From the NCBI GenBank assembly GCA_030698625.1, contig JAUYMS010000028.1, positions 3,854 to 67,853 of the forward strand: DNA of 64,000 nt, written 5' to 3'. Numbering within the stretch: the stretch's first letter is position 1; every line of letters begins with the position of its first letter. Under the pieces are notes generated by a model. The model saw only the letters and a list, made by a program, of their open reading frames with translations. It had not been told where the DNA came from and made no database searches. The position numbers and the translations under genes were made by a program. This document shows, piece by piece, positions 14,881 to 60,116 of this stretch. This DNA comes from Candidatus Omnitrophota bacterium. Its GTDB lineage: Bacteria; Omnitrophota; Omnitrophia; Omnitrophales; Aquincolibacteriaceae.

Positions 14881-14883
14881 GTG

Positions 14884-16194: not shown

Positions 16195-16226
16195 TCGGTT
16201 TCTCCTTTAATTTACGCCTACTGGTT

Positions 16227-19251: not shown

Positions 19252-20841
19252 ATGTCCATCCCTAAGCTCTCGCGATTTCTTCCCGGTCTGATCATCAGCG
19301 CAAGCGTCGGTATTCGCTTAGCAGGAATAACAAGGCCCCTATTGGGGAATTTTGCGGTCTACGGATCGGCACAAGCGATGATCGCGCGGTTTTTTTTGGA
19401 AGGTCCGTTCTCGAGTCTTCTGTATCCGCGTATTAATGTGCTGGTCAACGGAGAGCCGTCTCTTATTCTGCTCTACTATCCGATTAGTTCACTCATCGCA
19501 GCTGCTATGCATACGCTCTTCGGCGGCTCTCTGGATGTGTGGGGCAGGCTTCAAGCCGTCGTGTTCTTTGGCTTGGCGGCGGCATTCCTTTATCGATTAA
19601 TTAGGAAAGTTGCGGATGAAAAAATGGCGGTCGCAGGTTTGACTGCCTTCTGCCTCTTTCCGCTCACGATTATCTACGGGCAGAGCTTTCAAAATGAGAT
19701 GGCTACCATCTTTTTCAGTGTGGGTTTCTTTTGGTACTGGTTACGTCTCGTCGAAACGGGAAAAAAATACCACATTCTCACTGCGGCGATGATGCTGACC
19801 GGAGTTCTTCTGACGCGTCCGAATAATCTATATCTCCTGCTGCCGGCTCTCTATCTGGCGCTGATAAAGGGAAATAAGATTTCTATGGGGCGATTGCTGT
19901 TCTTTAGACTCGTGCCGTGCTTGCTCTTGAGCGCGGTCATCCCGGCCTTATGGTATTTTCATGTCTGGCGGGTATCGGTCGAAGAAAGTAATATTTACAG
20001 CACGATGTTTGCCCAGTTGATGGTGCGGTCGAGCTTTGTGAATCCAATCATTTTGACGGCCGACTATTACAAGAAGCTGTTCGATATGCTGGTAACTATG
20101 TCGTTTACCCCGATAGGTTTCACTCTCTTTGTGGCCGGATGTTTTCTGGCGATCCCCAGATGGCGCGAGGCCGGCTTTTTTGTGCTCTGGTGTCTGGCGT
20201 TTCTCGGTAGCTCCTTGCTCATTCCGAGGAAACTAATTGACCACGAGTTCTATCTGCTGCATTTTGTAACAGCCGGAGCCCCCCTTGTCGGGTTGGGGTT
20301 TTGTGCGATTGCGAGCATGTTTGGGCGTGAAATGCGCGGGCGAGGGGTGTTGCTTGGCTTTTTTTTGCTGTTGGCACTGGGCATGACAATGCGCTATGCC
20401 GCGCATCCTGCATTTAAGACTCCTGCCAGTGAAAGGCATTTCATCGAATTGGCCCAGAAGGTGAATTCGTTAACGGAGAAAGCGAGAAGTCGAATCGTCT
20501 TTCAGGGGACTCATACGCTTTTGTACTATTCGGATCGCTACGGGTGGGGGTTTCACCTAAACCGGACCGGTGATATCGGGGATTACTATAAGCATATGAA
20601 TTGGCAAAAGCTCTCAGAGGAAGAGAGAGGAGCTCGCAACGAGGCGCGCCGTGAAGCAACCACGGATCTTGAATATCTGAGGGAGCATGAGGGGGCAACT
20701 CATTTTGTGGTAACGGATCTTGGCGAGTTTTACACGGATGCCAAGTTTGCCGACCATATGCACCAAACCTACCAGACCCTCTTTGTCGACAAAGAAGTCG
20801 GCATCATCTTTTCTCTAAGTTCTGAAGCCGTATCGCCTTAG
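19252..20841 (+). CDS. ArnT/PMT-like GT-C membrane glycosyltransferase (GT83-like), 529 aa
   Basis: More than 10 predicted TM helices. N-terminal region resembles 4-amino-4-deoxy-L-arabinose transferase-like proteins. Confidence 0.6.
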   Translation: MSIPKLSRFLPGLIISASVGIRLAGITRPLLGNFAVYGSAQAMIARFFLEGPFSSLLYPRINVLVNGEPSLILLYYPISSLIAAAMHTLFGGSLDVWGRLQAVVFFGLAAAFLYRLIRKVADEKMAVAGLTAFCLFPLTIIYGQSFQNEMATIFFSVGFFWYWLRLVETGKKYHILTAAMMLTGVLLTRPNNLYLLLPALYLALIKGNKISMGRLLFFRLVPCLLLSAVIPALWYFHVWRVSVEESNIYSTMFAQLMVRSSFVNPIILTADYYKKLFDMLVTMSFTPIGFTLFVAGCFLAIPRWREAGFFVLWCLAFLGSSLLIPRKLIDHEFYLLHFVTAGAPLVGLGFCAIASMFGREMRGRGVLLGFFLLLALGMTMRYAAHPAFKTPASERHFIELAQKVNSLTEKARSRIVFQGTHTLLYYSDRYGWGFHLNRTGDIGDYYKHMNWQKLSEEERGARNEARREATTDLEYLREHEGATHFVVTDLGEFYTDAKFADHMHQTYQTLFVDKEVGIIFSLSSEAVSP

Positions 20842-32799: not shown

Positions 32800-32806
32800 G
32801 GAATTC

Positions 32807-35273: not shown

Positions 35274-35282
35274 GGAGATTCC

Positions 35283-38349: not shown

Positions 38350-39882
38350 ATGAAGACATCAAGCGGTGGTCGCGCGCGAATCGCCAAGGATGCGGGTTTG
38401 TATCTAGCCGGATCTTATGGCGCTCAGTTCTTTGATATCATTAACGGAATTCTTATCCGGCGATTTCTCGGACCGGAGAATATGGGCATCTGGGCGTTCC
38501 TTCAGGTAATTTTGAATTACGCGAAGCATTCGGCGCTGGGTGTTACGGCGGCAACATCAAGAGATGTGCCGTATTACCGCCGCAAAGGTGAAAATGACAA
38601 GGCCGAACGCGTTAAGAACATGGTGTTTAGTTTCACGGTTGTTACAGCTACGTTAGCCGGGCTGGGGGTTATCGTCTATGCGTTGATGAATCGAGATAAA
38701 TATGATACCCCATTCTTTTTCGGCCTTGTGGTAATAGGAATCCTTATCGTCTTGCAGCGTCTGTTTAATCTCCACATAGTTCTGCTGCGCGCCCTCAAGG
38801 AATTTGCATTCGCCTCTACGGCCAATGTTTGTTCTAGTGTGCTTACGGTCCTGTTCACGGTGAGTTTGGTTTGGCGTTTCGGGCTCTATGGTCTTTTTGC
38901 AGGGCTTATCTTGAACTATATCCTGATGATTGCCGGCATCAGCATTAAATCGGGAATTCGTTTCCGTTTTATTTTCCGATTCGGGGAGTTGTCTCCGATA
39001 TTTAGCCTTGGTTTTGCCATGTTGGTATACGGTGTACTCACAACGATTTTGATGAGTGTGGACCGTATCATGATTACGAAGTATATGGGTTTTGAGGCTC
39101 TCGGGATTTACAGTATCGCGCTGATGGCGGGCAATTATCTTTTTAGTTTGCCGACAATGCTGGCCGTGGCTTTCTCCCCGTATTTACAAGAGGCCTATGC
39201 GGAAAGAGATGTCGCGAAGGATCTGGAGAAATTCCTCGTGGTGCCGACACTGGTGATTGGGTATCTTTTTCCGTGCCTCATCGCTCTTGTGTGGGTGGTG
39301 TCGGACTGGCTCATTCCGTTGCTTTTGCCCGCCTATGTCGCCGGCATTCCTGCCCTTAAGTGTCTTATCCTAAGCAGCTTTTTTCGAGGCCTCTTGCACC
39401 CGTTTCTTTCTTTTTTTGTGACAGTTCGAAAACACTGGCACCTATGCCCTATCCAGGGATTTCTGGCACTCTTATGCTTCGGGCTGACTTGGGCCTTTAT
39501 GAAGAGCGGGATGGGATTGCTGGGGGTGGCTCTCGCAAGCGTGATTACGTACGGATTGGGGTTTGGGCTTATTTCGGCCTATTGCTATCGGCGAATCCAG
39601 TCTTTGAAGAAGGCTCTTGGGATTTACATCAGGATATTCGGTGTGTTTGTTTATTTTTCGGGCGCACTGTACCTCATGGACTCTTATGCACAGACTTTTC
39701 CTCCGACGATACTTCGGTTTTCTTTGCAGTTTGCAGTGTTCATGGTGCTGATGCTGCCGTGGATATTTCTGGCGGAGAGGGAAACGAAAGCCTTAACGAC
39801 GCTAAGGGCGGTTGTGAAGAGTTGGCTCGAGAAGCGTGCTAACCGGGGAAACCCTTCAGTTCCGAACGAAGAAAGTCAATAA
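38350..39882 (+). CDS. Wzx-like oligosaccharide flippase (polysaccharide biosynthesis protein, MOP superfamily)
   Basis: About 14 predicted TM helices. N-terminal 'RIAKDAGLYLAGSYGAQF' is typical of Wzx proteins. Confidence 0.75.
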   Translation: MKTSSGGRARIAKDAGLYLAGSYGAQFFDIINGILIRRFLGPENMGIWAFLQVILNYAKHSALGVTAATSRDVPYYRRKGENDKAERVKNMVFSFTVVTATLAGLGVIVYALMNRDKYDTPFFFGLVVIGILIVLQRLFNLHIVLLRALKEFAFASTANVCSSVLTVLFTVSLVWRFGLYGLFAGLILNYILMIAGISIKSGIRFRFIFRFGELSPIFSLGFAMLVYGVLTTILMSVDRIMITKYMGFEALGIYSIALMAGNYLFSLPTMLAVAFSPYLQEAYAERDVAKDLEKFLVVPTLVIGYLFPCLIALVWVVSDWLIPLLLPAYVAGIPALKCLILSSFFRGLLHPFLSFFVTVRKHWHLCPIQGFLALLCFGLTWAFMKSGMGLLGVALASVITYGLGFGLISAYCYRRIQSLKKALGIYIRIFGVFVYFSGALYLMDSYAQTFPPTILRFSLQFAVFMVLMLPWIFLAERETKALTTLRAVVKSWLEKRANRGNPSVPNEESQ

Positions 39883-40882
39883 TAAGCCGCGTCACTTCCG
39901 CATGGCCGCTGCTATTGAGATGGGTGTCCAGGGGAAAGTAAAGAGTTCCATAATCCTCCCTGGTCCTAAAAACTCTCCAAAGACTTAGTAGCGGGATAGT
40001 CCTGCTCGCGGCGTAGCGCTCCAAATAGGTATGCGTCAGGAATTGTTCGGGTTTGAGTATCTCCTCACGGCGGGGGATGTAGATAATGGCGAATTGAATG
40101 CCTCTGCTATCGGTAAAGCCTTTGATGCGCTCAAGCCACTCTGCTGTAGCGGCAAATTCCGTGTCGGTGATTGTGTACGGGATAACGAAATTGCGCTTGA
40201 AGTTTACGACGAACGCATAGAGGGCGCTTCGGCCATAGAAAAGATGATCAAGCGTTTGGCTGATCCGGCCAAACGCCCGATAGAAAAATGAAAGAAATGG
40301 CGACGGATTATAGTGGTTTGTCTTATCAAGGGCCTTCTGAAAGTTGTCTTGAATGTCATTCTGGAAAAAACAGAGCACTACGGAATCCGGGGAGTACTTG
40401 ATCCCTTCTGACTGCAGAAAACGAAATTCATCGGCAGTTGACGAACCGGGCGCGCCGCCGTTGATAGCTTCGCCGTAGGCCGCGATCTTCTTGTTGACCC
40501 CCGCCACAAAAGTTTGGTGTTCCTCTACGCCCGTTCCGTAGGTGAATGAATCTCCGAGAAACAGGATGCGGTAGCGTGAAGGCGACTTTTCGTAGGGCGT
40601 CTCGGGATTTCGCAACCCTTTGGTGTTAATGCCGACCGTCATTTCGTACTCGCGTCTTTTGACGACTGCCTGGCTGCCCGGGATATTCCATTCTCCGAGA
40701 GTCGGGTGCTTGCCGAAAGTCGGCTGTGACGAGGGATGGCGGATGTTGAATTGATGATTGAGGAATTCGCTGCGCGCCGGCGAAGGGAATATTCGAAAAG
40801 CAATTTCGAGGAAAAGAATGAATATCAGCGTTGAAATTGCGGCTGCGGTGATGTTATTCGCTATTTTCGTTTTTGTGCTCAT
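39839..40882 (-). CDS. Membrane-anchored SGNH/GDSL hydrolase (paralog 1 of 3)
   Basis: N-terminal TM helix. 'ILFLGDSFTYG' block I. C-terminal 'DTHLNSSGH' DxxH block V. Confidence 0.7.
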   Translation of the reverse strand: MSTKTKIANNITAAAISTLIFILFLEIAFRIFPSPARSEFLNHQFNIRHPSSQPTFGKHPTLGEWNIPGSQAVVKRREYEMTVGINTKGLRNPETPYEKSPSRYRILFLGDSFTYGTGVEEHQTFVAGVNKKIAAYGEAINGGAPGSSTADEFRFLQSEGIKYSPDSVVLCFFQNDIQDNFQKALDKTNHYNPSPFLSFFYRAFGRISQTLDHLFYGRSALYAFVVNFKRNFVIPYTITDTEFAATAEWLERIKGFTDSRGIQFAIIYIPRREEILKPEQFLTHTYLERYAASRTIPLLSLWRVFRTREDYGTLYFPLDTHLNSSGHAEVTRLIIDFLRSELKGFPG

Positions 40883-43368
40883 GCCGCTATTTTTTTCCGC
40901 CCCGCTTTTTTCCGCTTCGTAGTTTTTGACGCCCATAGAAAGAGGCATGCGCTGACGACCAGTCCCGCGCCGTACGGCACCCGCGGGAATGGATCGAGAT
41001 AAAAACGGACGACATGATTACCGGGTGGAACACGGACGGCCCTAAAGGCGTGATAGGCAATGTAGAGCGGTGTGTCCCTGCCGTCAAGAGTGCTTTTCCA
41101 GCCCGGATGATAGGTGTCTGTGAGGACAAGGATCCTTTCATCGTCTGTGTGAACTTCAACTTCAACTCGGTGGGGGGTGTACTCGGCGATCGTCACCTTA
41201 TCCTCGGCTGAGAGCGCCTTGGAACTGATTGCGGGGGCGTTTTTACCTTCGAGTATGGCTACTTCTCGCGGATCAGTGCTGCTGTCTTCGAGCCATGCCA
41301 ATGATTGAGCCGCATCTCGCGCGACGGCGGACTCGGCAACCAGAAATGCGCGGTCCAGTGCATTCCGGTTCTGGTAAACGAGAAATTCCGTGTCTTCAAA
41401 AACGGGAGTGCGCCCCGGGAGAATATCGGGCTTTGTTGTTATGACGTATTTCACGTTAAGTAGATCTGCGAGCTGATCATCGTACTGGTAAATGTCATGA
41501 AGGCGGATGGTATCAATCGCCTCATTGTGCGCAAGCAGTTTGAAGACATCGCTGTAGCGCCTTAGCGTCAGCGCTTGATACCCGTGAACGGAAGACAGGC
41601 CATGCACTAACTGCTGATCCGCGGGAAGGAACTGGGTGTGCCCCCAGGGGAAACCGACCTCGTCCCTGGGTTTCAAGGAGAGGAAGCGGAAGTATGACGC
41701 GTCTTGTTTGAGAAAGGCGATCGTTGGGTTGACGGGATACGCAGTGTTACGCGGCACGAGAGTGTTGAACGGGAGGGGGTGGGCCACAAAGCCATCCCAT
41801 ATCACCATTCCAAAGAAAACAATACCAAGTACGAGTCTTGGGGCCTTCCGTTTTTTGAAAGTCACAAACAGAACAGTGCCTGCCCCGTAGAGGATAAGCG
41901 GTACGAATATAGCCGGGGATCGCCAGTTTGCCCATGTCTCGAGCCATAGGAGAAAGTCAGTTATGCGCTCACGGTAAAAACTCTCGGTCTGTTGATAAGC
42001 GCCGCGCGTCATGATGAAGCCGAGCGTCTTTTCATGGAGAGCTTCGAGCGCAAAAGAATTAATAGCCATAACGATAAGATCCTTGATCAGAAAAAACGCG
42101 AGGAGGATCAAGAGAAATCTTGCGAATCGCCTCACCCAAGTTGCGGCCAGGGTATGCGGTGAACTTGTAACCGTGATACTGTTCATAAAGGCGGCCATGC
42201 CGGCGGCCGCAAGAATGGGTATCGTGACGGTCGTGAGCACAGTCATCCGTTGCGTGTTGATGAGCATGTTGACGAGCGGGATATCACGCAAGAGCGGCAA
42301 GATAAATACCTCGCCGCCCAGCACATAAGCGAGTGTGGCAAGAAAGGTAATCCAGTGCGGCAGCAGCCACGCGGTGATCTTGCGGGCAGACCAGGCGCAG
42401 CAAATAAAGAAAGCGGCAAACAGCCCCGGGTACCAGAAGTCGTGCAGACGGATCTTCCGCCCTGACATTGCAACGCCGATCGCTTGCATGAGCCGATCAT
42501 GAATGTGAGGGGATTGGATTGAATGGTGTGTCAGAAAGTCCGGAAATAGTACGGTTAAAAGACTGAAAGGACTGATGAAAAGCGGGGTCGTTTCCGCCAA
42601 CGTCTCGCGCGTCGAGTTTAATCCCACGACGCCGAGAATATAGGTCCGAAACCACACCACGGATAGAAACGTCACTATGTAAGTTAACGCATAGAAGAAT
42701 AGCTGCCGTCTGCCGCCCGCCGACTCATCATTTGATTGCAGAATCCGAATAAAGAAGTAGACGGTAGCGATGGGGATGAGATAAATAGGGTAATTGGCAT
42801 GGGAGCCCAGGAAGAGCAAGGCAGTGCTTGCTGTGGCGAGAAGTAAATAACGCGTCCTTCTGGTTTCGATGAGGCACTCGAAGAAGAGCAGCACCAACGG
42901 GAATAAGAAGAGTTGAATCTGGGGTTCCACGAGACAATCGGTGACCCATTCCGATCGCATGAAAAGAATGGCTCCAAAGAGACTCGCGATGCGGTGCCCT
43001 GTCATTCGCGATAAGTAGGCATACATGCAGAGTCCGGCGAGGAGATACGTCAAAATGAAAATAAGAAACCAAGCGGTTTCCGTCTGAAACAATAGAATGA
43101 GCGGCATAAACAAAAGCCAGGCGGGATTCGATACAGCCGTGTCCGCCATGTTGCCGGCCACCGATCCTGTGACCCACCACACGGGGAAATGGCCGGCCAA
43201 TGCCCAACGCTTGAAATAGGCCATGGCAGGGTAGGACATGAATCGCCCGTCCGTATGTAGCGGCATCGTCCCGGAAACGATCGGCTCCCAGAACACGACA
43301 AGAGAGACAGCCGCTAGCACGACGAGGCTCAGCGCAAGTTCGTAGGATTTTTTGGTGGAATGGCTCAT
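40879..43368 (-). CDS. YfhO-family GT-C membrane glycosyltransferase (second copy), 829 aa
   Basis: Polytopic N-terminal half with a YfhO-like block 'FPVWWVTGSVAGNMADTAVSNPAW'. Large C-terminal periplasmic domain. Paralogous in architecture to 796..3141. Confidence 0.65.
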   Translation of the reverse strand: MSHSTKKSYELALSLVVLAAVSLVVFWEPIVSGTMPLHTDGRFMSYPAMAYFKRWALAGHFPVWWVTGSVAGNMADTAVSNPAWLLFMPLILLFQTETAWFLIFILTYLLAGLCMYAYLSRMTGHRIASLFGAILFMRSEWVTDCLVEPQIQLFLFPLVLLFFECLIETRRTRYLLLATASTALLFLGSHANYPIYLIPIATVYFFIRILQSNDESAGGRRQLFFYALTYIVTFLSVVWFRTYILGVVGLNSTRETLAETTPLFISPFSLLTVLFPDFLTHHSIQSPHIHDRLMQAIGVAMSGRKIRLHDFWYPGLFAAFFICCAWSARKITAWLLPHWITFLATLAYVLGGEVFILPLLRDIPLVNMLINTQRMTVLTTVTIPILAAAGMAAFMNSITVTSSPHTLAATWVRRFARFLLILLAFFLIKDLIVMAINSFALEALHEKTLGFIMTRGAYQQTESFYRERITDFLLWLETWANWRSPAIFVPLILYGAGTVLFVTFKKRKAPRLVLGIVFFGMVIWDGFVAHPLPFNTLVPRNTAYPVNPTIAFLKQDASYFRFLSLKPRDEVGFPWGHTQFLPADQQLVHGLSSVHGYQALTLRRYSDVFKLLAHNEAIDTIRLHDIYQYDDQLADLLNVKYVITTKPDILPGRTPVFEDTEFLVYQNRNALDRAFLVAESAVARDAAQSLAWLEDSSTDPREVAILEGKNAPAISSKALSAEDKVTIAEYTPHRVEVEVHTDDERILVLTDTYHPGWKSTLDGRDTPLYIAYHAFRAVRVPPGNHVVRFYLDPFPRVPYGAGLVVSACLFLWASKTTKRKKAGRKKIAA

Positions 43369-43459
43369 GGTGATAACTGTAACGGCAGATGATACTTGAT
43401 TCGATCGGGAACCTCAAGAACATGTGGTCAAGGTGGGATTTGACTCCTATAATAAAAAG

Positions 43460-44683
43460 ATGAAAAAAGCCGAAAAGAACAGTACCCGGAACTGGATGCT
43501 CCTCGCGGCGGCTGTCGTCGCTCCACTCCTAATTGCTGAAATTGCATTGCACGGGTTTATCCCGGCAGCAGATCGGCCGGAGGCTTTTGCTCATCAGTTA
43601 AGCGAAAACCCCAAACTCTTTTATGATCCTGTGCCGAGAGCGAGTCGGGAAGTCACCTATTTTGAGGGGACCGTGGATGAGACCGCGGTCCGTTATGAGA
43701 TCAATGCGGCCGGTTTCCGGGATCGGGATTATTCGGTCAAGCCGCCTAGCGGCGTGGAGCGAATTGTTTTTCTTGGAGATTCGATTGTTTTTGGTTTTTC
43801 AGTAGACGGGCACGACGCTATGCCTAAACAGCTGGAACAGCGATTTCGGGATCATGATGATGCGACGCAAGTTCTTAATATGGGGGTATCGGGTTATGAC
43901 ACCGAGCAGGAGGTGGAATTTTTTAAGGTCAAAGGCGCCGCGTATGAACCGGATCTGGTTGTTGTGGGGTACGCATTGAATGATGCCCGTTATGCCTCGT
44001 GGGAACTCGATGTCTTACGGAATAATTGGGAGGCATTTGTCCGGCAGCCTGCGACGAACATTCGAACAAAGACCCTAGCATTCCTATTCAAAAACTCCCG
44101 AATCCTCGATCTTCTCAACCGACAATTTCATATTCAGAAGAGGGCATCATTCCTTCAGGCCTATCCGCTACTGTTTGATTTCGTTGAGGAGAAGTACTTG
44201 AGTCAGCGAGATCCGGAAGGGAGCCCGTATCGCCGTTTGGAAGCACTCATACAGCAAGAGGCGACTCGCCTGGGGACACCCGAACCGGCTCTCAACTACA
44301 TGATGCAGGGCATCGGTTTCCGTAATGAGAATCCTGTATTCTCATCGCACTGGCAGTTGAGTGAAGCCGCTTTTCGGGATCTGGCCCAGTTGTCGAAAGA
44401 GCGGGGGTTTGGCGTTGCGGTGGTACTATGGCCGCTCATGAGTTCCATGGCGACGTATCCGCTGGGTCCCTTGCATCAGTTTTTGCGAGTTAAGTTGGAG
44501 GCGATGGGCTTTGAAGTCATTGACCCGAAAGACTATCTGCAAGAACTCTGGATGAGTCATGGCGATAAATTGAGTCTCGACGGTATCCATTTTACACCCT
44601 GGGCGAATGAGAAAATCTCGAACTTCCTTTATCCCCGAATAAGAGACATTCTGAGGGCTCAAGCCTCAGATAATGATGGCTAG
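43460..44683 (+). CDS. Membrane-anchored SGNH/GDSL hydrolase (paralog 2 of 3)
   Basis: 'IVFLGDSIVFG' block I and 'DGIHFT' block V with an N-terminal TM helix. The alternative start 43424 was not preferred. Confidence 0.65.
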   Translation: MKKAEKNSTRNWMLLAAAVVAPLLIAEIALHGFIPAADRPEAFAHQLSENPKLFYDPVPRASREVTYFEGTVDETAVRYEINAAGFRDRDYSVKPPSGVERIVFLGDSIVFGFSVDGHDAMPKQLEQRFRDHDDATQVLNMGVSGYDTEQEVEFFKVKGAAYEPDLVVVGYALNDARYASWELDVLRNNWEAFVRQPATNIRTKTLAFLFKNSRILDLLNRQFHIQKRASFLQAYPLLFDFVEEKYLSQRDPEGSPYRRLEALIQQEATRLGTPEPALNYMMQGIGFRNENPVFSSHWQLSEAAFRDLAQLSKERGFGVAVVLWPLMSSMATYPLGPLHQFLRVKLEAMGFEVIDPKDYLQELWMSHGDKLSLDGIHFTPWANEKISNFLYPRIRDILRAQASDNDG

Positions 44684-47447: not shown

Positions 47448-47459
47448 AGGGAGAACCCA

Positions 47460-48073: not shown

Positions 48074-49102
48074 ATGAGAAAGTTCCAAGAAATACTGGTC
48101 ACGGGTGGGGCTGGATACGTCGGCGCGCGGTTAGTGCCTAAGCTCCTCAAACGCGGCTATAAGGTGCGCGTCCTTGACCTGTATCTTTTTGGCGAAGGAT
48201 TCTGGCCGGAGTGGGATGGATCCGCAAAACTGACCGAAATCAAAGGGGATTTGCGGGATACGGAAACGGTCCGCCGGGCGGTTCAAAGATGTGATGCGGT
48301 CATCCATTTAGCGTGCATTTCAAATGACCCAAGCTTCGAGTTAAACCCGGATCTCGGGCGCTCCATCAATTACGATGCTTTTCGACCGCTCGTGACCATG
48401 AGCCGGGATGCGGGTGTGAAACGGTTTATCTACGCGTCTTCCTCGAGCGTATACGGAATCAGTGACCGCCCAAACGTGACCGAAGATCACCCGCTTAAGC
48501 CGCTCACAGATTACAGCAAGTATAAAGCGCTCTGCGAAGAGATTCTTGCCGAGTACGAGAGCCCCGACTTTACAACGGTGGTTCTGAGGCCGGCGACGGT
48601 TTGCGGGTATTCGCCCAGGCAACGCCTCGACTTAACGGTGAATATTTTGACGAATCACGCTGTGCATAACGGCAAGATTAAAGTTTTTGGCGGAGAGCAG
48701 CTGCGCCCCAATATCCACATTGAGGACCTTACGGACCTGTATGTTCAATTGTTGGAACTACCTGCTGAAAAGGTGGCGGGTAAGACGTACAACGCGGGTT
48801 ACGAAAATCAAAAGGTGAAGGACATTGCGATGGCTGTCAGCAGCGTGGTTCGTGCAATGATACCGGAGCGCTCAGACCTCGCAATAGAGACAACACCGAC
48901 TGACGACAATCGCTCGTATCACATTTCTTCTGCAAAAATAAAGGGCGAGTTGGGATTTGCCCCCAAGAGGACCATCGAAGATGCGGTCAAGGATTTAGTG
49001 GCTGCTTTCCAGGCAGGCAAAATTCCGAATGCGATGACGGACAGCCGCTATTTTAATATCAAGACCATGCAGGAAAGCGTACTGGCGCAGCCGCAGTCAT
49101 GA
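48074..49102 (+). CDS. NAD-dependent sugar epimerase/dehydratase
   Basis: 'ILVTGGAGYVGARLV' motif. Internal ATG start chosen. Confidence 0.75.
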   Translation: MRKFQEILVTGGAGYVGARLVPKLLKRGYKVRVLDLYLFGEGFWPEWDGSAKLTEIKGDLRDTETVRRAVQRCDAVIHLACISNDPSFELNPDLGRSINYDAFRPLVTMSRDAGVKRFIYASSSSVYGISDRPNVTEDHPLKPLTDYSKYKALCEEILAEYESPDFTTVVLRPATVCGYSPRQRLDLTVNILTNHAVHNGKIKVFGGEQLRPNIHIEDLTDLYVQLLELPAEKVAGKTYNAGYENQKVKDIAMAVSSVVRAMIPERSDLAIETTPTDDNRSYHISSAKIKGELGFAPKRTIEDAVKDLVAAFQAGKIPNAMTDSRYFNIKTMQESVLAQPQS

Positions 49103-50067
49103 AAACGCATCCCTCTATCGAATTATATCGCGAAATGTTGCGCATTCGGCGCGTCGAAGAACGTATTGCCGAGCTCTATCCGGAGCAGGAAATCCGCTGC
49201 CCTGTCCATTTGTGTATCGGCCAAGAGGGTGTGGCTGTCGGCGTATCTGCAAACCTGAAGCCCCAAGATTATGTCCTCAGCGGCCATCGTTCGCACGGGC
49301 ATTACTTAGCACGCGGCGGAAACTTGAAGGCCATGATGGCAGAGCTGTGGGGCAAGGTTACGGGTTGCTGTCAGGGTAAGGGCGGCTCGATGCACTTGAT
49401 TGATTTGTCGGTCGGATTTCTGGCATCGACGCCGATTGTGGCCAGTACGATTCCGATCGCCGTCGGCGCCGCCTTGGGTTCGGTGATGAAGAACGAGGAT
49501 CGTGTCACGGTCGTGTACTTTGGCGAAGCCGCGACTGAGGAGGGCACGTTCCACGAAGCGGCTAATTATGCGGTCTTGAAGAAGTTGCCCGTGGTTTTTG
49601 TTTGCGAAAATAACCTTTATTCTGTCTATTCGCCGTTGGAAGTACGCCAACCGCCCGAACGCTCCCTCGTCGAGTTAGCGCGGGGCCACGGAATGGAAAG
49701 TCACTGGGAAGATGGCAACGATGTCCTTGCGGTGAAACGCTTGAGTGAACACGCCATCGATCATGCCCGCGCGGGTAAAGGTCCCAGCCTTCTGGAGTTT
49801 TCGACCTACCGTTGGTATGAGCACTGCGGTCCGAATCTTGATAACCATATCGGTTATCGCACGGAAGAAGAATTCCTCACATGGAAGAAGACTTGCCCCC
49901 TTTTGAAGTTAAGAGAGTCTTTACTTGCTGAAGGGATTTGTGCTGAGCCGGATCTGTCGTTGATCGAAGAAGATTTGAAGGCTGAAATTGATGACGCAGT
50001 TCGGTTTGCAAAAGAAAGCCCGTTTGGTGAAGAAGATTTGGCCTATCAACATATCTATGCAACCTGA
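49099..50067 (+). CDS. Thiamine-diphosphate-dependent dehydrogenase E1 alpha subunit
   Basis: TPP motif region 'GQEGVAVG...YRSHGH...GKGGSMH'. Confidence 0.8.
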   Translation: MKTHPSIELYREMLRIRRVEERIAELYPEQEIRCPVHLCIGQEGVAVGVSANLKPQDYVLSGHRSHGHYLARGGNLKAMMAELWGKVTGCCQGKGGSMHLIDLSVGFLASTPIVASTIPIAVGAALGSVMKNEDRVTVVYFGEAATEEGTFHEAANYAVLKKLPVVFVCENNLYSVYSPLEVRQPPERSLVELARGHGMESHWEDGNDVLAVKRLSEHAIDHARAGKGPSLLEFSTYRWYEHCGPNLDNHIGYRTEEEFLTWKKTCPLLKLRESLLAEGICAEPDLSLIEEDLKAEIDDAVRFAKESPFGEEDLAYQHIYAT

Positions 50068-50075
50068 CGAGCGTC

Positions 50076-51293
50076 ATGCCTGCAGACAAGTTTGATATTG
50101 CGATCATCGGTGGCGGGATCGTCGGGCTGGCGACAGCGCTAAGTCTTGCTAAAAGCCGGCCCGATTTACGGCTGTGCGTGTTTGAGAAGGAAGCATTGAT
50201 CGGGGAGCATCAGACATCGCATAATAGCGGCGTGATTCATTCCGGCATTTATTACGCGCCGGGCTCTTTGAAAGCGAGTCTTTGTGTGAAAGGCGTCGGC
50301 GCGATGATTTCTTTTGCTAAGGAAAACGGCGTGCCCTTTGAGCAGTGCGGGAAAGTTATTGTGGCAACCCGAGAAGAACAGAGACCGAGACTCAGAGCGC
50401 TATTCGAGCGGGGAATAGCAAACGGCGTTCCCGGTCTGCGTATACTTAACCGAACGGAGCTCCTTGAGCTCGAGCCGCATGCTGAAGGACTCGAAGCCAT
50501 TCACTCGCCGACTACCGGCATCATTGATTTTCGAAGGGCGGCCGAAGTCATGGCCGAAAAGTTTAAGGCCGGCGGCGGTAGCGTAGAGACCATGGCGAAA
50601 ATGGTTTCAGCTGAACATACCGGCTCCGAGCTTGTGTTGAAAATAGGCCGGATGGAAATCCGGACAAAGTATTTGATTAATTGCGGCGGTCTTTATTCGG
50701 ACACGATCGCCTTGATGCTCGGGGTTGAGCCGGGCGTGAGGATTATTCCGTTTCGCGGCGAGTACTATCTTATCCGGAATGAAAAGCGGCATTTAGTGAA
50801 GAATCTTATTTACCCGGTTCCAGACCCGGACTTACCTTTTTTGGGTGTTCATCTGACGCGTACAGTGGACGGGAAATTGGAAGCCGGACCGAACGCGATC
50901 CTGGCAACAGCGCGTGAGGGGTATCGGCGATCCGATTGGAAGACCGGAGAGTTTCTTGCAACATTGAGTAGCCCGCATTTTTGGAACATGGCGCGCCGTT
51001 ATTGGAAGACCGGTATTTTGGAGTGTTACCGTGCGGTGAGTAAGCGATCATTTGCGCGAGAGCTGCAAGGTCTGATAAAGGGCATTAGCGAAGATGATCT
51101 GGTGGATGGGCCAAGCGGCGTGCGGGCCCAATGCGTGGCAGAGGATGGCACGCTGGTTCACGATTTCAAGATTGTTGAAGGGCCGCGGTCAATTCACGTT
51201 GTAAACGTACCGTCACCGGCGGCAACGGCATCACTGGCGATCGGGGAGTATATCGCGGGGCTCGGAATTAAATCCTATGACGAGAGAACTTAA
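50076..51293 (+). CDS. FAD-dependent oxidoreductase (L-2-hydroxyglutarate oxidase / DAO family)
   Basis: 'FDIAIIGGGIVGLATA' dinucleotide fold and a 'SGVIHSGIYY' motif typical of this 2-hydroxyacid oxidase (LhgO-type) family. Confidence 0.75.
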   Translation: MPADKFDIAIIGGGIVGLATALSLAKSRPDLRLCVFEKEALIGEHQTSHNSGVIHSGIYYAPGSLKASLCVKGVGAMISFAKENGVPFEQCGKVIVATREEQRPRLRALFERGIANGVPGLRILNRTELLELEPHAEGLEAIHSPTTGIIDFRRAAEVMAEKFKAGGGSVETMAKMVSAEHTGSELVLKIGRMEIRTKYLINCGGLYSDTIALMLGVEPGVRIIPFRGEYYLIRNEKRHLVKNLIYPVPDPDLPFLGVHLTRTVDGKLEAGPNAILATAREGYRRSDWKTGEFLATLSSPHFWNMARRYWKTGILECYRAVSKRSFARELQGLIKGISEDDLVDGPSGVRAQCVAEDGTLVHDFKIVEGPRSIHVVNVPSPAATASLAIGEYIAGLGIKSYDERT

Positions 51294-52338
51294 ATATTTT
51301 CAAGCAATTCGCGAAGCGTTGGACCTGAGTCTGGAGCAGGATCCCTCTGTGTACTTGATGGGGCTGGGTGTGCCGGACCCTAAGGGGATCTTTGGCACGA
51401 CGCTGGGTCTTCAGGAGAAGTATGGCCCGGAGCGCGTGATGGATATGCCGACGGCAGAGAATGGCATGACGGGTGTTGCCCTGGGGTCAGCGATTGCGGG
51501 GATGCGGCCGGTCATGGTTCATCAGCGACTCGACTTCGCACTGCTGGCAGTGGAACAGATCGTGAATCAAGCTGCGAAATGGCATTACATGTTTGCCGGT
51601 AAGAGCTCGGTGCCGATGGTGATTCGATTGGTGATCGGACGAGGTTGGGGCCAAGGGCCGCAACATTCGCAGAGTCTCCAATCGTGGTTTGCTCATGTCC
51701 CGGGTCTCAAGGTTGTTATGCCGGCAACACCTTACGATGCGAAGGGATTAATGCTTTCCAGTATACGGGATGATAACCCGGTCATATTCTTGGAGCATCG
51801 CTGGCTTCACAATATGTTTGGTGCAGTGCCGGAAGGTGATTATGAAGTGCCGATCGGGAGAGCTCATGTTATTCGCGAGGGAAGGGATGTTACGATTGCC
51901 GCAGTGTCGCATATGGTCGTAGAAGCTCTGCAGGCGTCGAAAATGCTGGCAGAAGTAGGTATTGAAGCCGAGGTTGTTGACGTTCGCACCCTGCGTCCCC
52001 TGGATACGGAAACCATCGCAGCCTCGGTGCGTAAGACGCGGCGTATCCTGGTGGCCGATACCGACTGGAAAACAGGCGGCTTCAGCGCTGAAATTGTCTC
52101 ATGGGTGTGTGAAAACCAGTTTGATATCTTGAAGACAGCGCCGAGACGCGTGGCGTTGTCGGATTGCCCCGTGCCGACATCGCAGGTTCTTGCGAATCCT
52201 TGTTACCCACGGCCGGTAGATATTGCGCGCCAGGTATGCGAGATGGTGGGGCAGTCGACAGCGGATATTCAAGTACCCGTTGAATCAAGCGGAATACCGT
52301 TGGACATTCCGGATGCAAGTTTTGCGGGGCCTTTCTAA
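51277..52338 (+). CDS. Thiamine-diphosphate-dependent dehydrogenase E1 beta subunit (transketolase-like Pyr and C-terminal domains)
   Basis: E1-beta-like organisation with no lipoyl or E2 domain nearby. Confidence 0.8.
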   Translation: MTRELKYFQAIREALDLSLEQDPSVYLMGLGVPDPKGIFGTTLGLQEKYGPERVMDMPTAENGMTGVALGSAIAGMRPVMVHQRLDFALLAVEQIVNQAAKWHYMFAGKSSVPMVIRLVIGRGWGQGPQHSQSLQSWFAHVPGLKVVMPATPYDAKGLMLSSIRDDNPVIFLEHRWLHNMFGAVPEGDYEVPIGRAHVIREGRDVTIAAVSHMVVEALQASKMLAEVGIEAEVVDVRTLRPLDTETIAASVRKTRRILVADTDWKTGGFSAEIVSWVCENQFDILKTAPRRVALSDCPVPTSQVLANPCYPRPVDIARQVCEMVGQSTADIQVPVESSGIPLDIPDASFAGPF

Positions 52339-52339
52339 T

Positions 52340-53494
52340 ATGACAACAAGAGCAGCCGATAAAGAGACAGTCTCCGAAACACGACAGGTGCCGTACGTGA
52401 ATATTACGGGACAGCATGCGGGTCTCAAAAAGCAATTGCTCCGGGAATTCGAACGCGTTATCGATAGCGGCCAATTCGTGCTAGGTGAGGATGTGGGGAT
52501 ATTTGAAAAGCGTTTCGCCGAATTGTGCGGTGTTTCGTATGCTGTTGCCGTCAATTCCGGCACAGACGCACTCCTCTTAGCGTTGCGCGTCCTGAAGGTG
52601 GGTGAGGGCGACGAAGTTATTACGGCGCCAAACTCGTTTGTGTCGACGGCGAGTTGCATACGTCTTACCGGTGCGATGCCGGTCTTTGCCGACGTCGGGG
52701 AAGACTACAACATCGATCCCTCCAAGATTGAGGCTGCAATAACTGAGCGCACGAAGGCGATTTTGCCGGTGCATCTTACGGGACGCACTGCCGACATGGA
52801 TGCCATACTCGCGATAGCCAAAAGACATGAGATTCTCGTTGTTGAGGACGCCGCGCAAGCCGTCCTATCGGAATATCGCGGACGTCGCGCGGGTTCCTTC
52901 GGTGTTCTTGGGTGTTTCAGTCTTCATCCGCTAAAAACGCTCAATGCCTGCGGCGACGGCGGAGTTATTACAACAAACGACGAGAGGCTCTACAAACGGC
53001 TTCAGGTTTTACGTAACTTGGGTCTGGAGCATCGCGACGATTGCGTGGTCTGGACGGGGAACTCTCGCTTGGATACGATACAGGCTGCCGCGTTGCTCGT
53101 GAAGATGGACTATCTCGAGGCGTGGACTGCGGGCCGACGGAAGAACGCTGAATTTTATCGGCGTGAACTAGCCGGTGTTGCCGGGGTGCGGTGCCCGGAG
53201 CCGAAGAATCACGAAAGACCGGTGTACCACACGTTCGTGATTCGTGCCGAGCGGCGCGACAACCTCAAAAAGTATTTGGCAGATCAGGGAATCGGCTCGG
53301 CGGTGCATTACCCTGTTCCTATCCATATGCAAACGGTCGCCAAAGATCTTTGTGTGGCTGAGGGCAGTTTGCCTGAGGCCGAGACGCAATCGAAGGAAAT
53401 ATTGAGCCTTCCTGTTTATCCTGAGCTCGGCAAAGAAGACCTCGCCTATGTTGTTTTTTACATAAAAAAATTCTATCGGAGCGAAAATATATGA
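52340..53494 (+). CDS. DegT/DnrJ/EryC1 PLP sugar aminotransferase (tandem copy 1)
   Basis: DegT family. Start at ATG 52340. Confidence 0.8.
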
Positions 53495-54615
53495 GCACAA
53501 AGACAATGCAAGTGAAGTTCTCATATTTGGACCGCCAGTTTGAGAACATCGAGGACTACTTAGACGATATCCGTCAGGTGGTGAAGTCCGGTGATTTTAC
53601 GCTGGGGGTCGCGGTTCGTGAATTCGAGTCACGTTTTGCAAGGCTCTCCGGAGTCGCCCATGCCGTCGGAGTGGGAACGGGAACTGATGCGCTTGCGATG
53701 CCGCTCAAGGTGTTAGGCGTGGGGCCGGGCGACGAGGTGATTACGACGCCGATGACCTTCATCGCGACGGTCGGTGCTATTGCGAAGACGGGCGCCACCC
53801 CGGTTTTTGTTGATAGCGAAGACGGCTTTGTGATTGATCCCGACAAAATTGAGGCTGCTATCACGCCGCGGACAAAGGCGATTCTTCCGGTGCACTATAC
53901 CGGGAATGTGGCTGATATGCCGCGTATTGCGGCAATCGCCCAAAAACACAACCTCCTGATCGTCGAAGATGCCTGCCAATCGATCGCAGGGGCCATCGAC
54001 GGCAAACCGGTGGGCTCCTGGGGAGAGGCCGCAGGATTTAGCCTCCACCCATTGAAGAACTTGAATGTTTGGGGTGACGGGGGAATGATCATTACGCGCT
54101 CCGAAAAGTTGGCCGAACACTTAAGACTTTTTCGTAATCACGGGCTTGTAAATCGTGACGAGGTCTCCCTGTTCGGTTGGAACTGCCGCCTAGACAGTCT
54201 ACAAGCGGCCATCGGCAACCGTCTGATTGACCAGGTCGATTTTATTACCGACGGCCGAATTGCCAATGCCGCTCGTTATGATGACGGGTTGAAGGATTTG
54301 GCTGAATCAATATCCATTCCCGTAAGGCGGCCCGGAGTCAAGCATGTCTACCATCTCTACGTGATACGCGTTACGGAGCGCGATCGGTTGCTTAAGCATC
54401 TAATCGAAAACGGGGTTGAAGCAAAGGTGCACTACCCGATCCCGGTTCATTTGCAGGAGGGGGCCCGATCGCTGGGGTACAAGAAGGGCGACTTCCCTAA
54501 GTGCGAAGAGGATTGTGAGGATATCATTACTTTGCCCGCTCATCAGCATCTGGGCAATGATGAGATTGACTACACGATTGAGCAGGTAAGAAATTTTTAC
54601 AGGGGTAAGTCATGA
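53491..54615 (+). CDS. DegT/DnrJ/EryC1 PLP sugar aminotransferase (tandem copy 2)
   Basis: DegT family and paralogous to copy 1. Confidence 0.8.
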
Positions 54616-55868
54616 CGCTTAGTCTCAGAGAAGCAAGAATACGGAAGAAACAGCCTTATCGGCCGTTACTCGTGAATCTTGCCTTGCTGGTTTTTGTATG
54701 CGTTTTGGCGGTAGGCGCCGCCGAGGGCGTCCTACGCATAACGAAGTCCGTCAATCGCCTTCACAATCGAGCCACGAACATCTTTGATCCGGACATTGGC
54801 TACTACCATGGCCCGAAACAAAGTACGATATTCCGGTTCGAAGGACAGCGAATTCCGTATGGAACCAATAATTTAGGGTTCCGTGATAGGGACAGGGAAG
54901 TCCCCAAACCCGCGGACACTTACCGCGTTTTGTTTCTTGGCGACTCCTTCCTCGAGTCGCCGTGGTTGCCGAGTGAAGCCATTTTCCCGGCGGTTCTTGA
55001 GGAACGCTTCCGGGAGCGTGAGGTCGCTTCGGGCAAAAAGGTTGAATTTCTTAATTTTGGGGTCCTCGGTTATGGAACGGGTGTTCAGTACAATCAGCTT
55101 CTGAAAATAGGCGTTCAAACGGAGCCTGATTTTGTAGCGGTTGCATTCTTCATCAATGACATTTTAGACAACTATACGACTCCTCTTTTGCCGGGCGGCC
55201 GCCCGGATCCCGAATTTCTAGATCCGATCGATTATCACTTGGCTCATTATGCTAAGGATAGTACGGGGGGATGGCGGTTTATTCCGGCAGAGCCGTATCC
55301 GCATCGCGGCGCCGTGCGTACTTTTTTGAATAAGGAATTTCACCTCTATCAGTTTTTGGGAGACAGCTTTCCGGCTCTCAAAAAAGTGCTCCGCCTATTT
55401 GAGCGTAAGGCGCCGGAAGAGCATGTGACCGAAACCTCTGAGCGGAGGCTTGAACCGAACCAAATGTTTAATTTTCTTCAGTCTCCCCCGGTTGAGGTGG
55501 TGATCGGTTGGGAAGCTACCGAGTATATCCTTGGTGAAATGAAATCCTATCTGAGTCTGAAGGGAATCCCGATGATGTTAACCTTCCTGCCACCGGACTA
55601 TCTCCTATCGCGAGAGGCATGGGAAGCGGAAATGAAGGCCAGGGGTCTGAATCCTGACGAAGGGGCTATCGATCTTCCCGAGCAAAAGGTTAAGGCAATT
55701 TGCGAGAAGCTCGACATTGAGTTTGTGAGCCCGACAGCGAAGTTTCGCGCCTCGGGCAAGCAACTTCATTTTAAATCCGACCCTCACTTTAATGCGAGCG
55801 GGCACGCGCTTATGGCAGATGTGATGGAGACTTATTTCCAGAACCGGCTCGCGCCGGGAAGGAAATGA
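54612..55868 (+). CDS. Membrane-anchored SGNH/GDSL hydrolase (paralog 3 of 3)
   Basis: N-terminal TM helix. '[11 protein letters not shown]' block I and 'DPHFNASGH' block V. Confidence 0.7.
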
Positions 55869-57636: not shown

Positions 57637-57655
57637 AGGTGTCTCTGTGGTGAAA

Positions 57656-60106: not shown

Positions 60107-60116
60107 GCCGAGGAAA

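Follow-up and report, generated by a model that had tools for sequence, protein, structure and literature searches.

Three SGNH proteins, SGNH-A, SGNH-B and SGNH-C, encoded in a giant surface-sugar cluster of an uncultured bacterium (a Candidatus Omnitrophota MAG, source of SGNH-A, MDP3920149.1, and of SGNH-B, MDP3920151.1), are genuine acyl-ester enzymes that belong to a glycan locus and work outside the cytoplasm, where they probably attach acyl groups to exported sugars or trim them off. The cluster is rich in GT-C enzymes; the window is the whole stretch of 64 kb that was analysed. Our tentative preference is to see the three proteins as the extracytoplasmic halves of two-component O-acyltransferases whose partner would be encoded elsewhere in the genome; what we infer is their topology, what they act on, which way the reaction runs and that this genome has the partner at all.

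The GT-C enzymes of the locus number at least six (two YfhO, two PMT, DUF2079 and GT87); they include a PMT-type enzyme (3239..5092, plus strand; Pfam PMT, E 6e-10) and a PMT_2-type enzyme (19252..20841, plus strand; Pfam PMT_2, E 5e-9). A Wzx/MOP-type flippase with 11 TM segments (38350..39882, plus strand; Pfam Polysacc_synt_3, E 1e-17) is convergent with SGNH-A (347 aa; 39839..40882, minus strand), and the 3′ ends of the two genes share 44 nt. Next come YfhO#2 (40879..43368, minus strand) and SGNH-B (43424..44683, plus strand; 395-419 aa by choice of start). SGNH-C (418 aa; 54612..55868, plus strand) is embedded in a nucleotide-sugar operon. It is directly preceded by sugar-modification genes (49099..54615, plus strand), identified with Pfam as ThDP E1 alpha, an FAD oxidoreductase (DAO), E1 beta and two DegT aminotransferases; the order E1beta-DegT-DegT-SGNH-C is kept in two other contigs, L088 and L089. 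In all, the SGNH genes of the glycan locus number four.

The three genes have the coordinates first given, and their products are paralogues that have diverged from one another (28-34% identity, E 1e-13 to 1e-17). Pfam Lipase_GDSL_2 recognises SGNH-A (E 1.1e-8, 36.3 bits for a cut-off of 32.9) and SGNH-B (E 2.7e-12); SGNH-C scores under the cut-off (E 2.3e-6, 28.7 bits) and shows its homology to SGNH-A and SGNH-B by BLASTP (E 2e-13 and 6e-17). SGNH-A starts at M23 (40882), being 100% identical to MDP3920149.1, and has orthologues at 43-53% identity; SGNH-B, which was aligned in orthogroup alignments A2 and A3, has annotated starts at M13 (43460) or M25 (43496). The Ser of GDS, the Gly of block II, the N-D of block III and the His of block V are invariant in family alignments of 23 and 14 members. 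Three paralogous, membrane-anchored SGNH proteins were what the first-pass annotation had read here, and BLASTP, the alignments and the one N-terminal segment of each protein bear this out; all three are catalytically intact. Its attribution of GDS and DxxH to all three stands for GDS, while DxxH belongs to SGNH-B alone (DGIH), SGNH-A (LDTH) and SGNH-C (SDPH) displaying DxH. The N-terminal hydrophobic segment, single in each protein, forms a long helix in AlphaFold models, and because K/R residues precede it an N-in/C-out topology is predicted. A Glu at the outer end of this anchor, with an Arg four residues later, is conserved in 54 of 70 family sequences.

The SGNH fold is predicted with high confidence (AlphaFold pLDDT ~92: AF2 91.8 for SGNH-A, 91.9 for SGNH-B), as a canonical core with a helical insertion between blocks III and V (85-130 residues; ~130 in SGNH-B). 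The nearest PDB sequences and structures are esterases or thioesterases (TesA, Axe2, CEX, CgnD; profile E 6e-12 to 1e-5). Foldseek yields a target-normalised TM-score of up to 0.79 to TesA, for matches that span a core of ~180 residues only (query-normalised TM-score 0.35-0.44), and the top structural match is CgnD, an amide-cleaving hydrolase of SGNH-like type (PMC10070186). TesA and the Lipase_GDSL_2 proteins of carbohydrate-esterase type (Axe2, CEX, CrmE10) are the best matches in sequence and fold; the four blocks are canonical as in TesA, whose DGIH is also that of SGNH-B. Unlike them, SGNH-A/B/C carry a TM anchor, an N-terminal beta-rich segment and the large helical insertion, and are placed in glycan biosynthesis operons.

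Neither in sequence nor in fold do the proteins belong with AlgJ/AlgX or PatB, to which the first-pass annotation had likened them: the blocks run S-G-N-H, block II has its Gly and block III its Asn, and the matches are of TesA/CE type. AlgJ, AlgX and PatB match the family profile weakly (E 0.009-0.02), and the comparison of predicted structures with AlgX and PatB, which had been proposed as a check, led to TesA-type folds and carbohydrate esterases instead. There are likenesses nevertheless. With PatA/PatB, an MBOAT-SGNH system, the proteins share extracytoplasmic location, a lone TM helix at the N-terminus and the Ser-His-Asp triad, and SGNH-B relatives adjoin MBOATs, with FxYxxF in two cases (PMC12148441); they differ in that no MBOAT lies in or near the Omnitrophota locus, in the block II Gly (Ser or Asn in PatB) and in the helical insertion, while PatB itself (E 0.02) is not in the Foldseek top 50. 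AlgJ/AlgX (Pfam ALGX, PF16822) likewise come from exopolysaccharide loci and are SGNH-like enzymes, either membrane-anchored or located in the periplasm, with the DxH of SGNH-A and SGNH-C as block V (PMC9487903). In L088 and L089 the 55% orthologue of SGNH-C clears the ALGX cut-off with its C-terminal third; SGNH-A, SGNH-B and SGNH-C themselves give no match to that profile. AlgJ/AlgX, by contrast, are circularly permuted (H-S-G-N), with GTSYS for GDS in block I and Tyr for Asn in block III (PMC9487903), and no AlgI-type MBOAT is found near SGNH-A/B/C. OatA, OafA and OafB also hold an SGNH domain outside the membrane that acts on surface carbohydrates, and relatives fused or adjacent to AT3 resemble them. 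Yet the Omnitrophota locus has no AT3, the L030 fusion (SGNH, then AT3) runs in the reverse order of OatA and OafA, and the oxyanion-hole residues, atypical in OafA/B and SpOatA, are canonical here (PMC7448272, PMC9487903).

No acyl-exporting partner came to light around these genes. Absence of MBOAT and AT3 from the window, claimed earlier, was confirmed: no ORF of at least 150 aa matched PF03062 (MBOAT) or PF01757 (AT3), local HMMs for both found nothing among stop-to-stop ORFs of at least 40 aa in the window and its right flank, and the multi-TM ORFs of the window are limited to two YfhO, two PMT-type enzymes, Wzx and one GT2. A partner just outside the window had been named as the finding that would speak against the earlier reading; none is present in the 10 kb to the right (visible 74 kb in all), and the stretch free of them reaches 40 kb to the left and 18 kb to the right of the SGNH-A/B pair. 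The same is true of the syntenic contigs L088, L089 and L090, and of L008 and the surroundings of L009, where the nearest SGNH-B orthologues are found. SGNH-A and SGNH-C showed no MBOAT or AT3 linkage of their own, and Pfam detected no LbH/hexapeptide-type or other cytoplasmic O-acyltransferase in the window.

That SGNH proteins of this kind usually work with a membrane acyltransferase is true of this family, as relatives display. An MBOAT (E 3e-35, 8e-25; local HMM E 1e-197 to 1e-220) lies immediately 3′ of SGNH-B orthologues in L015, L017 and L019 (36-40% identity, full length). In L015 and L019 it terminates in FVYFQF, fitting FxYxxF, the acyl-shuttle motif of MBOAT-SGNH systems (PMC12148441), and is followed by a second SGNH-like gene. 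A rough NJ tree places these MBOAT-linked loci in a subclade sister to the group that holds SGNH-B. AT3 adjoins the SGNH relative in L034, L037 and L042 and lies not far from it in L014; in L030 a single 809-aa ORF joins the SGNH domain to AT3. A Myxococcota/Spirochaete clade of the family has AT3 next to its members or fused with them.

These relatives, together with the invariant catalytic blocks and the high-confidence folds, lead us to favour two-component O-acyltransferases. The Glu/Arg motif of the anchor, present also in MBOAT- and AT3-linked members, argues in the same direction, PatB likewise having an N-terminal TM helix, which docks on its MBOAT (PMC12148441). So do the DxH that SGNH-A and SGNH-C share with AlgX/AlgJ, the ALGX match of SGNH-C orthologues, and a window devoid of any LbH/hexapeptide-type enzyme to make the ester that a pure esterase would need. 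Known two-component systems, however, are normally gene-linked, and against the two-component reading stand the lack of MBOAT and AT3 in the window, in its right flank, in L088, L089, L090 and L008 and around L009, the absence of any such link for SGNH-A and SGNH-C themselves, and best matches that are hydrolases. All three proteins, moreover, keep the block II Gly and block III Asn at which the transferases PatB, SpOatA and OafA/B deviate (PMC12148441, PMC7448272).

The proteins could well be, instead, partner-independent extracytoplasmic esterases (de-O-acylases, possibly de-N-acylases) that trim or strip acyl groups from the exported glycan or from polyprenyl-phosphate-linked sugars. Parallels exist: Ape1 has the same trimming role for peptidoglycan, and in the Arn pathway a deformylation step precedes GT-C transfer. 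Since pat operons also carry Ape1, an SGNH esterase placed beside MBOATs, MBOAT linkage is no proof of transferase activity. Canonical, hydrolase-like S-G-N-H blocks, nearest structures that are all esterases or thioesterases, the amide hydrolysed by CgnD (PMC10070186) and the want of an acyl-exporting partner in the visible 74 kb and the syntenic contigs fit such trimming. They must be set against a locus where no cytoplasmic O-acyltransferase would create the removable ester, relatives that are fused to AT3 or adjoin AT3 or MBOAT, and a charged anchor motif that points to more than a simple tether, namely to a partner in the membrane or to a substrate linked to lipid.

YfhO#2 (829 aa, ~9 TM), first reported as a second YfhO, is a true but divergent one: Pfam YfhO matches its C-terminus only (E 1.1e-8), while its whole length can be aligned with YfhO#1 (E 2e-18, 21% identity). 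As in the CsbB/YfhO (GtlA/GtlB) three-component extracytoplasmic glycosylation system, YfhO-family GT-C and GT2 genes share one locus, YfhO#1 (781 aa; 796..3141, plus strand; Pfam YfhO, E 7e-29) directly following a GT2 whose C-terminus has two TM helices (18-821; Pfam Glycos_transf_2, E 3e-21); YfhO#2, very divergent, departs from it. We know of no SGNH partner for YfhO systems, and no paper mentioning SGNH together with YfhO was found in the literature searched. The abutting of the two genes, noted early, proves a stronger link than was claimed: the YfhO#2 stop and the SGNH-A start overlap in ATGA, by which the genes are judged translationally coupled, SGNH-A being the last of the operon. 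Overlap and order are constant wherever the pair is seen, in L088, L090 and partially L089 (SGNH 43-49% identity; YfhO#2 orthologues, at 45-46%, directly upstream). SGNH-B and this YfhO gene are transcribed away from each other, across a spacer (43369-43459) with promoter-like hexamers on both strands, not above chance.

It is unlikely that SGNH-A, and perhaps SGNH-B, forms a complex with a YfhO-like GT-C enzyme without MBOAT or AT3, a new functional pairing; in one version, the acyl group would cross the membrane on a polyprenyl-phosphate sugar and SGNH would move or remove it during GT-C transfer. The ATGA coupling, the conserved pair and the divergent placement of SGNH-B speak for such a pairing. 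At least 10 of 62 loci, L008 of Omnitrophica GWA2_52_8 among them, also have a GT-C gene (PMT_2, DUF2079, GT87, YfhO) at most three genes from the family member, but such genes are abundant in these phyla generally. Adjacency is no proof of a physical or mechanistic link, the pair was seen in four contigs only (0 of 56 distant relatives in JGI metagenomes), and no SGNH-GT-C fusion was found in the family, whereas one SGNH-AT3 fusion was.

Finally, that these are membrane-anchored lipases, (lyso)phospholipases or SGNH-fold peptidases, in a glycan locus by chance and aimed at envelope lipids or foreign material, is very improbable. TesA/lysophospholipase L1 and the peptidase-like CgnD do resemble them in structure, and some SGNH-B orthologues, such as L002/L009, lie among unrelated housekeeping genes. 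Against this stand four SGNH genes in a single glycan locus, the synteny of SGNH-A with YfhO and of SGNH-C with DegT-DegT sugar genes across contigs, and recurring MBOAT, AT3 and GT-C neighbours.

We take much of the glycan to be built outside the cytoplasm, by GT-C enzymes using polyprenyl-phosphate-sugars, and SGNH-A/B/C to be active Ser-His-Asp enzymes, each anchored in the cytoplasmic membrane by its N-terminal helix and probably facing outwards. On the two-component reading, an MBOAT or AT3 encoded elsewhere would acylate a tyrosine on the outer side of the membrane; the SGNH serine would receive the acyl group from there and hand it on to the hydroxyl of a sugar. SGNH-B is the closest of the three to known MBOAT-partnered relatives; SGNH-A may act on the product or the substrate of its co-translated YfhO-like GT-C, and SGNH-C on the sugar made by its own operon. 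The proposed targets of all three are O-acyl esters, most likely acetyl, carried by sugars that this locus exports.

What is new in this locus is a conserved GT-C–SGNH operon, accompanied by a cluster of orphan SGNH paralogues anchored by a transmembrane (TM) helix. Pfam annotation of every ORF of at least 150 aa describes the window as a single long surface-glycan locus, carried nearly entirely by the + strand. It comprises a GT2 gene followed by YfhO#1 (18-3141), two PMT-type GT-C genes (3239-5092 and 19252-20841), a GDP-heptose-type gene set on the - strand (13527-17321), a pseudaminic-acid-type nonulosonate operon with WbuX/HisH/HisF, FkbH and MaoC-SDR (21249-36425, assigned with both Pfam and NCBIfam), a Wzx flippase gene (38350-39882) and, after the SGNH and YfhO genes, more nucleotide-sugar genes up to the window end.

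The GT2 gene (18-821), cut by the window edge, encodes two C-terminal TM helices and overlaps the start of YfhO#1 (796-3141); the couple resembles the CsbB/YfhO pair, which associates a polyprenyl-phosphate-sugar synthase with a GT-C enzyme. The minus-strand island at 13527-17321, a compact suite of HAD phosphatase, nucleotidyltransferase, transaldolase/FSA, SIS isomerase and GHMP kinase genes, looks like a GDP-heptose pathway, and a second heptose-type set (HldE-like and GmhA-like) lies at 45906-48071. The core of the 21249-36425 operon consists of PseB- and PseC-like genes, a PseG+GNAT fusion, NeuB and a CMP-sugar synthetase; its tailoring extras are FkbH, MaoC+SDR, a class III aminotransferase, WbuX+HisH/HisF (an acetamidino-type amidotransferase) and a methyltransferase. 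Between WbuX and the flippase gene, a soluble 641-aa ORF (36422-38347) without Pfam or NCBIfam match could be a novel glycosyltransferase or a polymer-modifying enzyme. Within a nucleotide-sugar operon, ThDP-dependent E1 alpha and E1 beta genes, with an FAD oxidoreductase (DAO) gene in between (49099-52338), may account for a two-carbon branching or keto-sugar modification step; E1 beta is kept beside DegT-DegT-SGNH-C in two related contigs, L088 and L089. Two B12-binding radical SAM enzymes (5101-6405 and 60033-61937) are likely to catalyse sugar C-methylation, and the second is kept beside a methyltransferase and epimerases in the same two contigs and in a third, L090. Finally, an ORF of 324-347 aa, according to its start, sits between two SDR genes (57533-58576); it has no Pfam or NCBIfam match, and the Logan assembly also has a gene call there.

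Three SGNH genes of this Candidatus Omnitrophota MAG are at the centre of our analysis: SGNH-A (39839-40882, - strand; 100% identity with MDP3920149.1, encoded on a 132-kb contig under locus tag Q8R76_05020), SGNH-B (43424-44683, + strand; MDP3920151.1) and SGNH-C (54612-55868, + strand). That they are real and paralogous, as the first-pass annotation had it, is borne out by mutual BLASTP (all three homologous to one another, 28-34% identity, E 2e-13 to 6e-17) and by invariant blocks; each protein also has one N-terminal hydrophobic segment. SGNH-A and SGNH-B score above the Lipase_GDSL_2 cut-off, SGNH-C just below it (28.7 vs 32.9), while NCBIfam gave only sub-threshold matches, to Leptospira 'LA_2490 family SGNH esterase' models. 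Block I reads FLGDS in all three, its G, D and S being invariant in the family alignments A2 and A6; two alignments, with 20 and 11 database relatives, show no variation at the serine of GDS, the glycine of block II, the Asn-Asp of block III or the histidine of block V. The oxyanion-hole columns, N.G..G in block II and ND in block III, are invariant too, and NMGVSGYDT of SGNH-B can be aligned by eye with NASISGDT in TesA. Block V had been described as DxxH in each protein. This is the case for SGNH-B (DGIH), whereas SGNH-A (LDTH) and SGNH-C (SDPH) have DxH, with the Asp shifted by one.

The three proteins are single-domain, without fused AT3. Since Lys/Arg residues precede the only hydrophobic segment, which makes a long helix in the AlphaFold models of SGNH-A and SGNH-B, the positive-inside rule suggests that the catalytic domains face outward. 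Where the TM helix reaches its outer end, family members carry a conserved Glu, usually with an Arg four residues on (E-x3-R); a strict pattern finds it in 54 of 70 family sequences, in members linked to MBOAT or AT3 genes and in orphan members alike. This Glu is E26 in SGNH-A, E15 in SGNH-B (395-aa form) and E38 in SGNH-C. As to chemistry there is no doubt: all three are acyl-enzyme catalysts of the Ser-His-Asp type, predicted to sit at the membrane's outer face, in a locus devoted to decorating exported glycans.

The AlphaFold models (pLDDT 91.8 for SGNH-A, 91.9 for SGNH-B) show a canonical SGNH core with a TM helix at the N-terminus, a short stretch rich in beta structure and, between blocks III and V, a helical insertion of about 85 residues in SGNH-A and about 130 in SGNH-B. 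When compared with the PDB using Foldseek, they retrieve CgnD (8a2n), TesA, Axe2, CEX and further canonical SGNH hydrolases, with a probability of 1.00 to TesA, Axe2 and others; AlgX, AlgJ, PatB, OatA and DltD chains are absent from the top 50. The family profile run against PDB sequences tells the same story, with esterases at E 6e-12 to 1e-5, against 0.009-0.02 for AlgJ (0.009), AlgX (0.02) and PatB, in the C-terminal part only. The proteins are therefore placed with hydrolase-type SGNH enzymes, and the kinship to AlgX or PatB put forward in the first-pass annotation did not survive structural comparison. SGNH-A, B and C appear to belong only to the general Lipase_GDSL_2 superfamily.

In their way of working, these enzymes would nevertheless come closest to the SGNH partner in PatAB, AlgIJX and OatA systems, and it is useful to see where they depart from them. 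Features of the AlgX/AlgJ family (PF16822) are a circular permutation with order H-S-G-N, a GTSYS block I, a block III Tyr and a DxH block V (PMC9487903), whereas SGNH-A, B and C keep the order S-G-N-H, with GDS and ND; the DxH block V is common to that family, SGNH-A (DTH) and SGNH-C (DPH), not to SGNH-B. Pfam ALGX matches none of the three even at E up to 5, while SGNH-C orthologues reach 33-40 bits (cut-off 26.5), over profile positions 23-139 of 268 only. Unpermuted order, GDS, the block III Asn and the missing ALGX match rule out AlgX/AlgJ membership; PatB membership was rejected as well, PatB's atypical block II and gene-linked MBOAT being absent here. With MBOAT-SGNH systems (PatAB, AlgIJ, DltBD) our proteins share the N-terminal single-TM anchor and presumably the outward orientation. 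These systems, however, normally have a gene-linked MBOAT ending in FxYxxF, or a DltX-like microprotein; adjacent MBOATs were found in relatives' loci, and none in the window or the 10 kb to its right. OatA/OafA proteins have AT3 fused to SGNH, whereas SGNH-A, B and C are unfused; a Myxococcota relative has the fusion in reverse order, SGNH then AT3.

In the window, neither MBOAT nor AT3 was found by Pfam on ORFs of at least 150 aa or by local HMMs on ORFs of at least 40 aa, every multi-TM ORF has an assignment, and there is no DltX-like microprotein or ORF ending in FxYxxF. A Logan contig from run SRR13727534 (L006) runs 10 kb past the right window end. This extension encodes GT2, GT4, a CDP-OH transferase, a fourth SGNH with TPR, DUF2079, GT2 and GT87, and neither MBOAT nor AT3 was found there. 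The absence of these partners, already noticed from the window, thus holds across it and 10 kb rightwards. A profile of the two MBOATs beside SGNH-B orthologues had at least 8000 matches; the accessions of 10 NCBI-sourced ones among the matches listed are not near MDP39201xx. The fourth SGNH gene (L006 15493-17133, about 5.5 kb right of the window end, 530-547 aa) has TPR repeats inserted into the SGNH domain and after it, and is followed by DUF2079 (GT-C), GT2, methyltransferase and GT87 (GT-C) genes; SGNH+TPR fusions of a similar kind occur in three relatives' loci (L064, L071 and L022).

YfhO#2 (40879-43368, - strand, 829 aa) lies directly upstream of SGNH-A, and the M23 start of SGNH-A gives an ATGA overlap with its stop codon. 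It matches Pfam YfhO (PF09586) at 34.5 bits (cut-off 28.5) by its C-terminus only, has about nine TM segments, and aligns with YfhO#1 over its full length (BLASTP E 2e-18), the first-loop Asp included (HTDG vs SGDH). None of the GT2 genes of the locus (18-821, 17441-18181 and two more in L006) adjoins it. On the other side, the 3' ends of the Wzx flippase gene (+) and SGNH-A (-) converge with a 44-nt overlap (39839-39882), and a weak terminator-like hairpin is visible on the - strand at 39807-39791. Promoter and terminator scans round the YfhO and SGNH genes gave motif counts no higher than in shuffled sequence, and are not relied on.

Close SGNH-A relatives are few: seven proteins with E <1e-78 among 5.8 billion clusters. 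Three can be viewed in context, in L088, L089 and L090 (17, 9 and 14 kb seen). In all three, a YfhO#2 orthologue is directly upstream of the SGNH-A relative, overlapping it on the same strand (822 aa and 45% identity in L088; 836 aa and 46% in L090; truncated, 40%, in L089). They share neighbouring sugar genes (B12-radical SAM, methyltransferase, epimerases, DegT), and L088 and L089 have an SGNH-C orthologue (55%) at the same position, after E1beta-DegT-DegT. This recurrence marks both the YfhO-SGNH-A pair and the place of SGNH-C in its operon as conserved, rather than as chance arrangements in the source genome. L090 further has a GT2 gene next to the pair. Neither MBOAT nor AT3 was found in the stretches viewed. 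A scan of JGI metagenomes with the SGNH-A orthogroup yielded distant relatives only, with one MBOAT in their flanks and neither the YfhO pair nor AT3, the YfhO and AT3 HMMs used being narrow. The YfhO genes of the window fit the CsbB/YfhO type of extracytoplasmic glycosylation. No such system is known to have an SGNH partner, and our literature search found no mention of SGNH together with YfhO.

The wider family offers another perspective. A scan with one genome per species found 507 SGNH-B relatives; 80 of their loci were retrieved, from Omnitrophota, Planctomycetota, Myxococcota, Acidobacteriota and other phyla, and ORF calling with the family HMM gave a callable family gene in 62. Within three genes of it were 52 neighbours with at least four TM segments, among which Pfam recognized PMT_2 in 10, AT3 in 3 and MBOAT in 2, besides DUF2079, GT87, Wzy_C and flippase; local HMMs raised the count of acyltransferase partners further. 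MBOAT is immediately downstream of the SGNH-B orthologue in three loci (L015, L017, L019). In L015 and L019 it is followed by a second SGNH-like gene and ends in FVYFQF, an instance of FxYxxF, the acyl-shuttle motif that carries an acyl-tyrosine intermediate in MBOAT-SGNH systems (PMC12148441). AT3 is three genes off in L014, adjacent in L034, L037 and L042, and fused in L030, a Myxococcota MAG (JAPYQM010000104.1, 5187-7613), where an 809-aa ORF combines a TM-anchored N-terminal SGNH domain (97-191) with a C-terminal AT3 (416-763). In a rough NJ tree, SGNH-B goes with L008, L009 and L010, none MBOAT-linked, while the sister subclade unites the three loci linked to MBOAT with the one that has AT3 nearby; sequences adjacent or fused to AT3 fall into a clade of their own, and SGNH-A and SGNH-C pair together, far from SGNH-B. 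The best SGNH-B orthologue (45% identity) is in L008, Omnitrophica GWA2_52_8, in a cluster SGNH-DUF2079-PMT-like-GT87-Wzy_C-SGNH that echoes the source locus; further close orthologues, e.g. L002/L009, sit among unrelated genes.

How, then, should these enzymes be understood? Our first choice, tentative as it is, would make SGNH-A, B and C transferase halves, with an MBOAT or AT3 partner encoded elsewhere, unlinked. It is favoured by the recurrence of MBOAT and AT3 genes next to relatives, with one AT3 fusion among them, by the PatB-like anchor with conserved charged residues, by the AlgX-like DxH and the ALGX matches of SGNH-C orthologues, and by a locus without a cytoplasmic O-acyltransferase to supply an esterase with substrate. 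That they are esterases instead is a possibility to be taken seriously, if with some doubt. Their oxyanion hole is fully canonical, whereas it is non-canonical in the characterized transferases PatB, SpOatA and OafA/B (PMC12148441, PMC7448272); the nearest relatives are all hydrolases, and no partner was found in these 74 kb or in the syntenic contigs. Ape1 provides a precedent, so that MBOAT linkage is no proof of transfer, and the second SGNH-like gene after MBOAT in L015 and L019 goes in the same direction. A genuinely new coupling of SGNH to GT-C enzymes seems unlikely: translational coupling and conservation of the YfhO-SGNH-A pair and the frequency of GT-C neighbours in family loci speak for it, but no SGNH-GT-C fusion was found, and GT-C genes abound in these phyla. 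More doubtful still is a specific form of it, in which YfhO#2 and SGNH-A would be a dedicated two-enzyme machine on the membrane's outer face, needing neither MBOAT nor AT3: a polyprenyl-phosphate sugar would itself carry the acyl group out, and the SGNH enzyme would move this group elsewhere or take it off as the GT-C enzyme transfers the sugar. A non-glycan lipase or peptidase is scarcely probable because of the conserved synteny. The interpretation proposed in the first-pass annotation is partly supported.

Acylation of surface polymers outside the cytoplasm is currently explained by two routes, MBOAT + SGNH and AT3 + SGNH. Here, four SGNH genes lie in about 74 kb of glycan genes with at least six GT-C genes, yet neither kind of acyl exporter was found. 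If, as in our preferred reading, the partner is merely unlinked, this would be an ordinary system with an unusual gene dispersal; if it is absent, we would be dealing either with deprotection tied to GT-C glycosylation or with a novel means of moving acyl groups across the membrane. The YfhO#2/SGNH-A machine, if true, would be a third route of extracytoplasmic glycan acylation or deprotection. The analysis also defines a widespread clade of uncharacterized TM-anchored canonical SGNH enzymes, with their helical insertion and charged anchor motif, and offers an initial view of how uncultured Omnitrophota make their envelope glycans.
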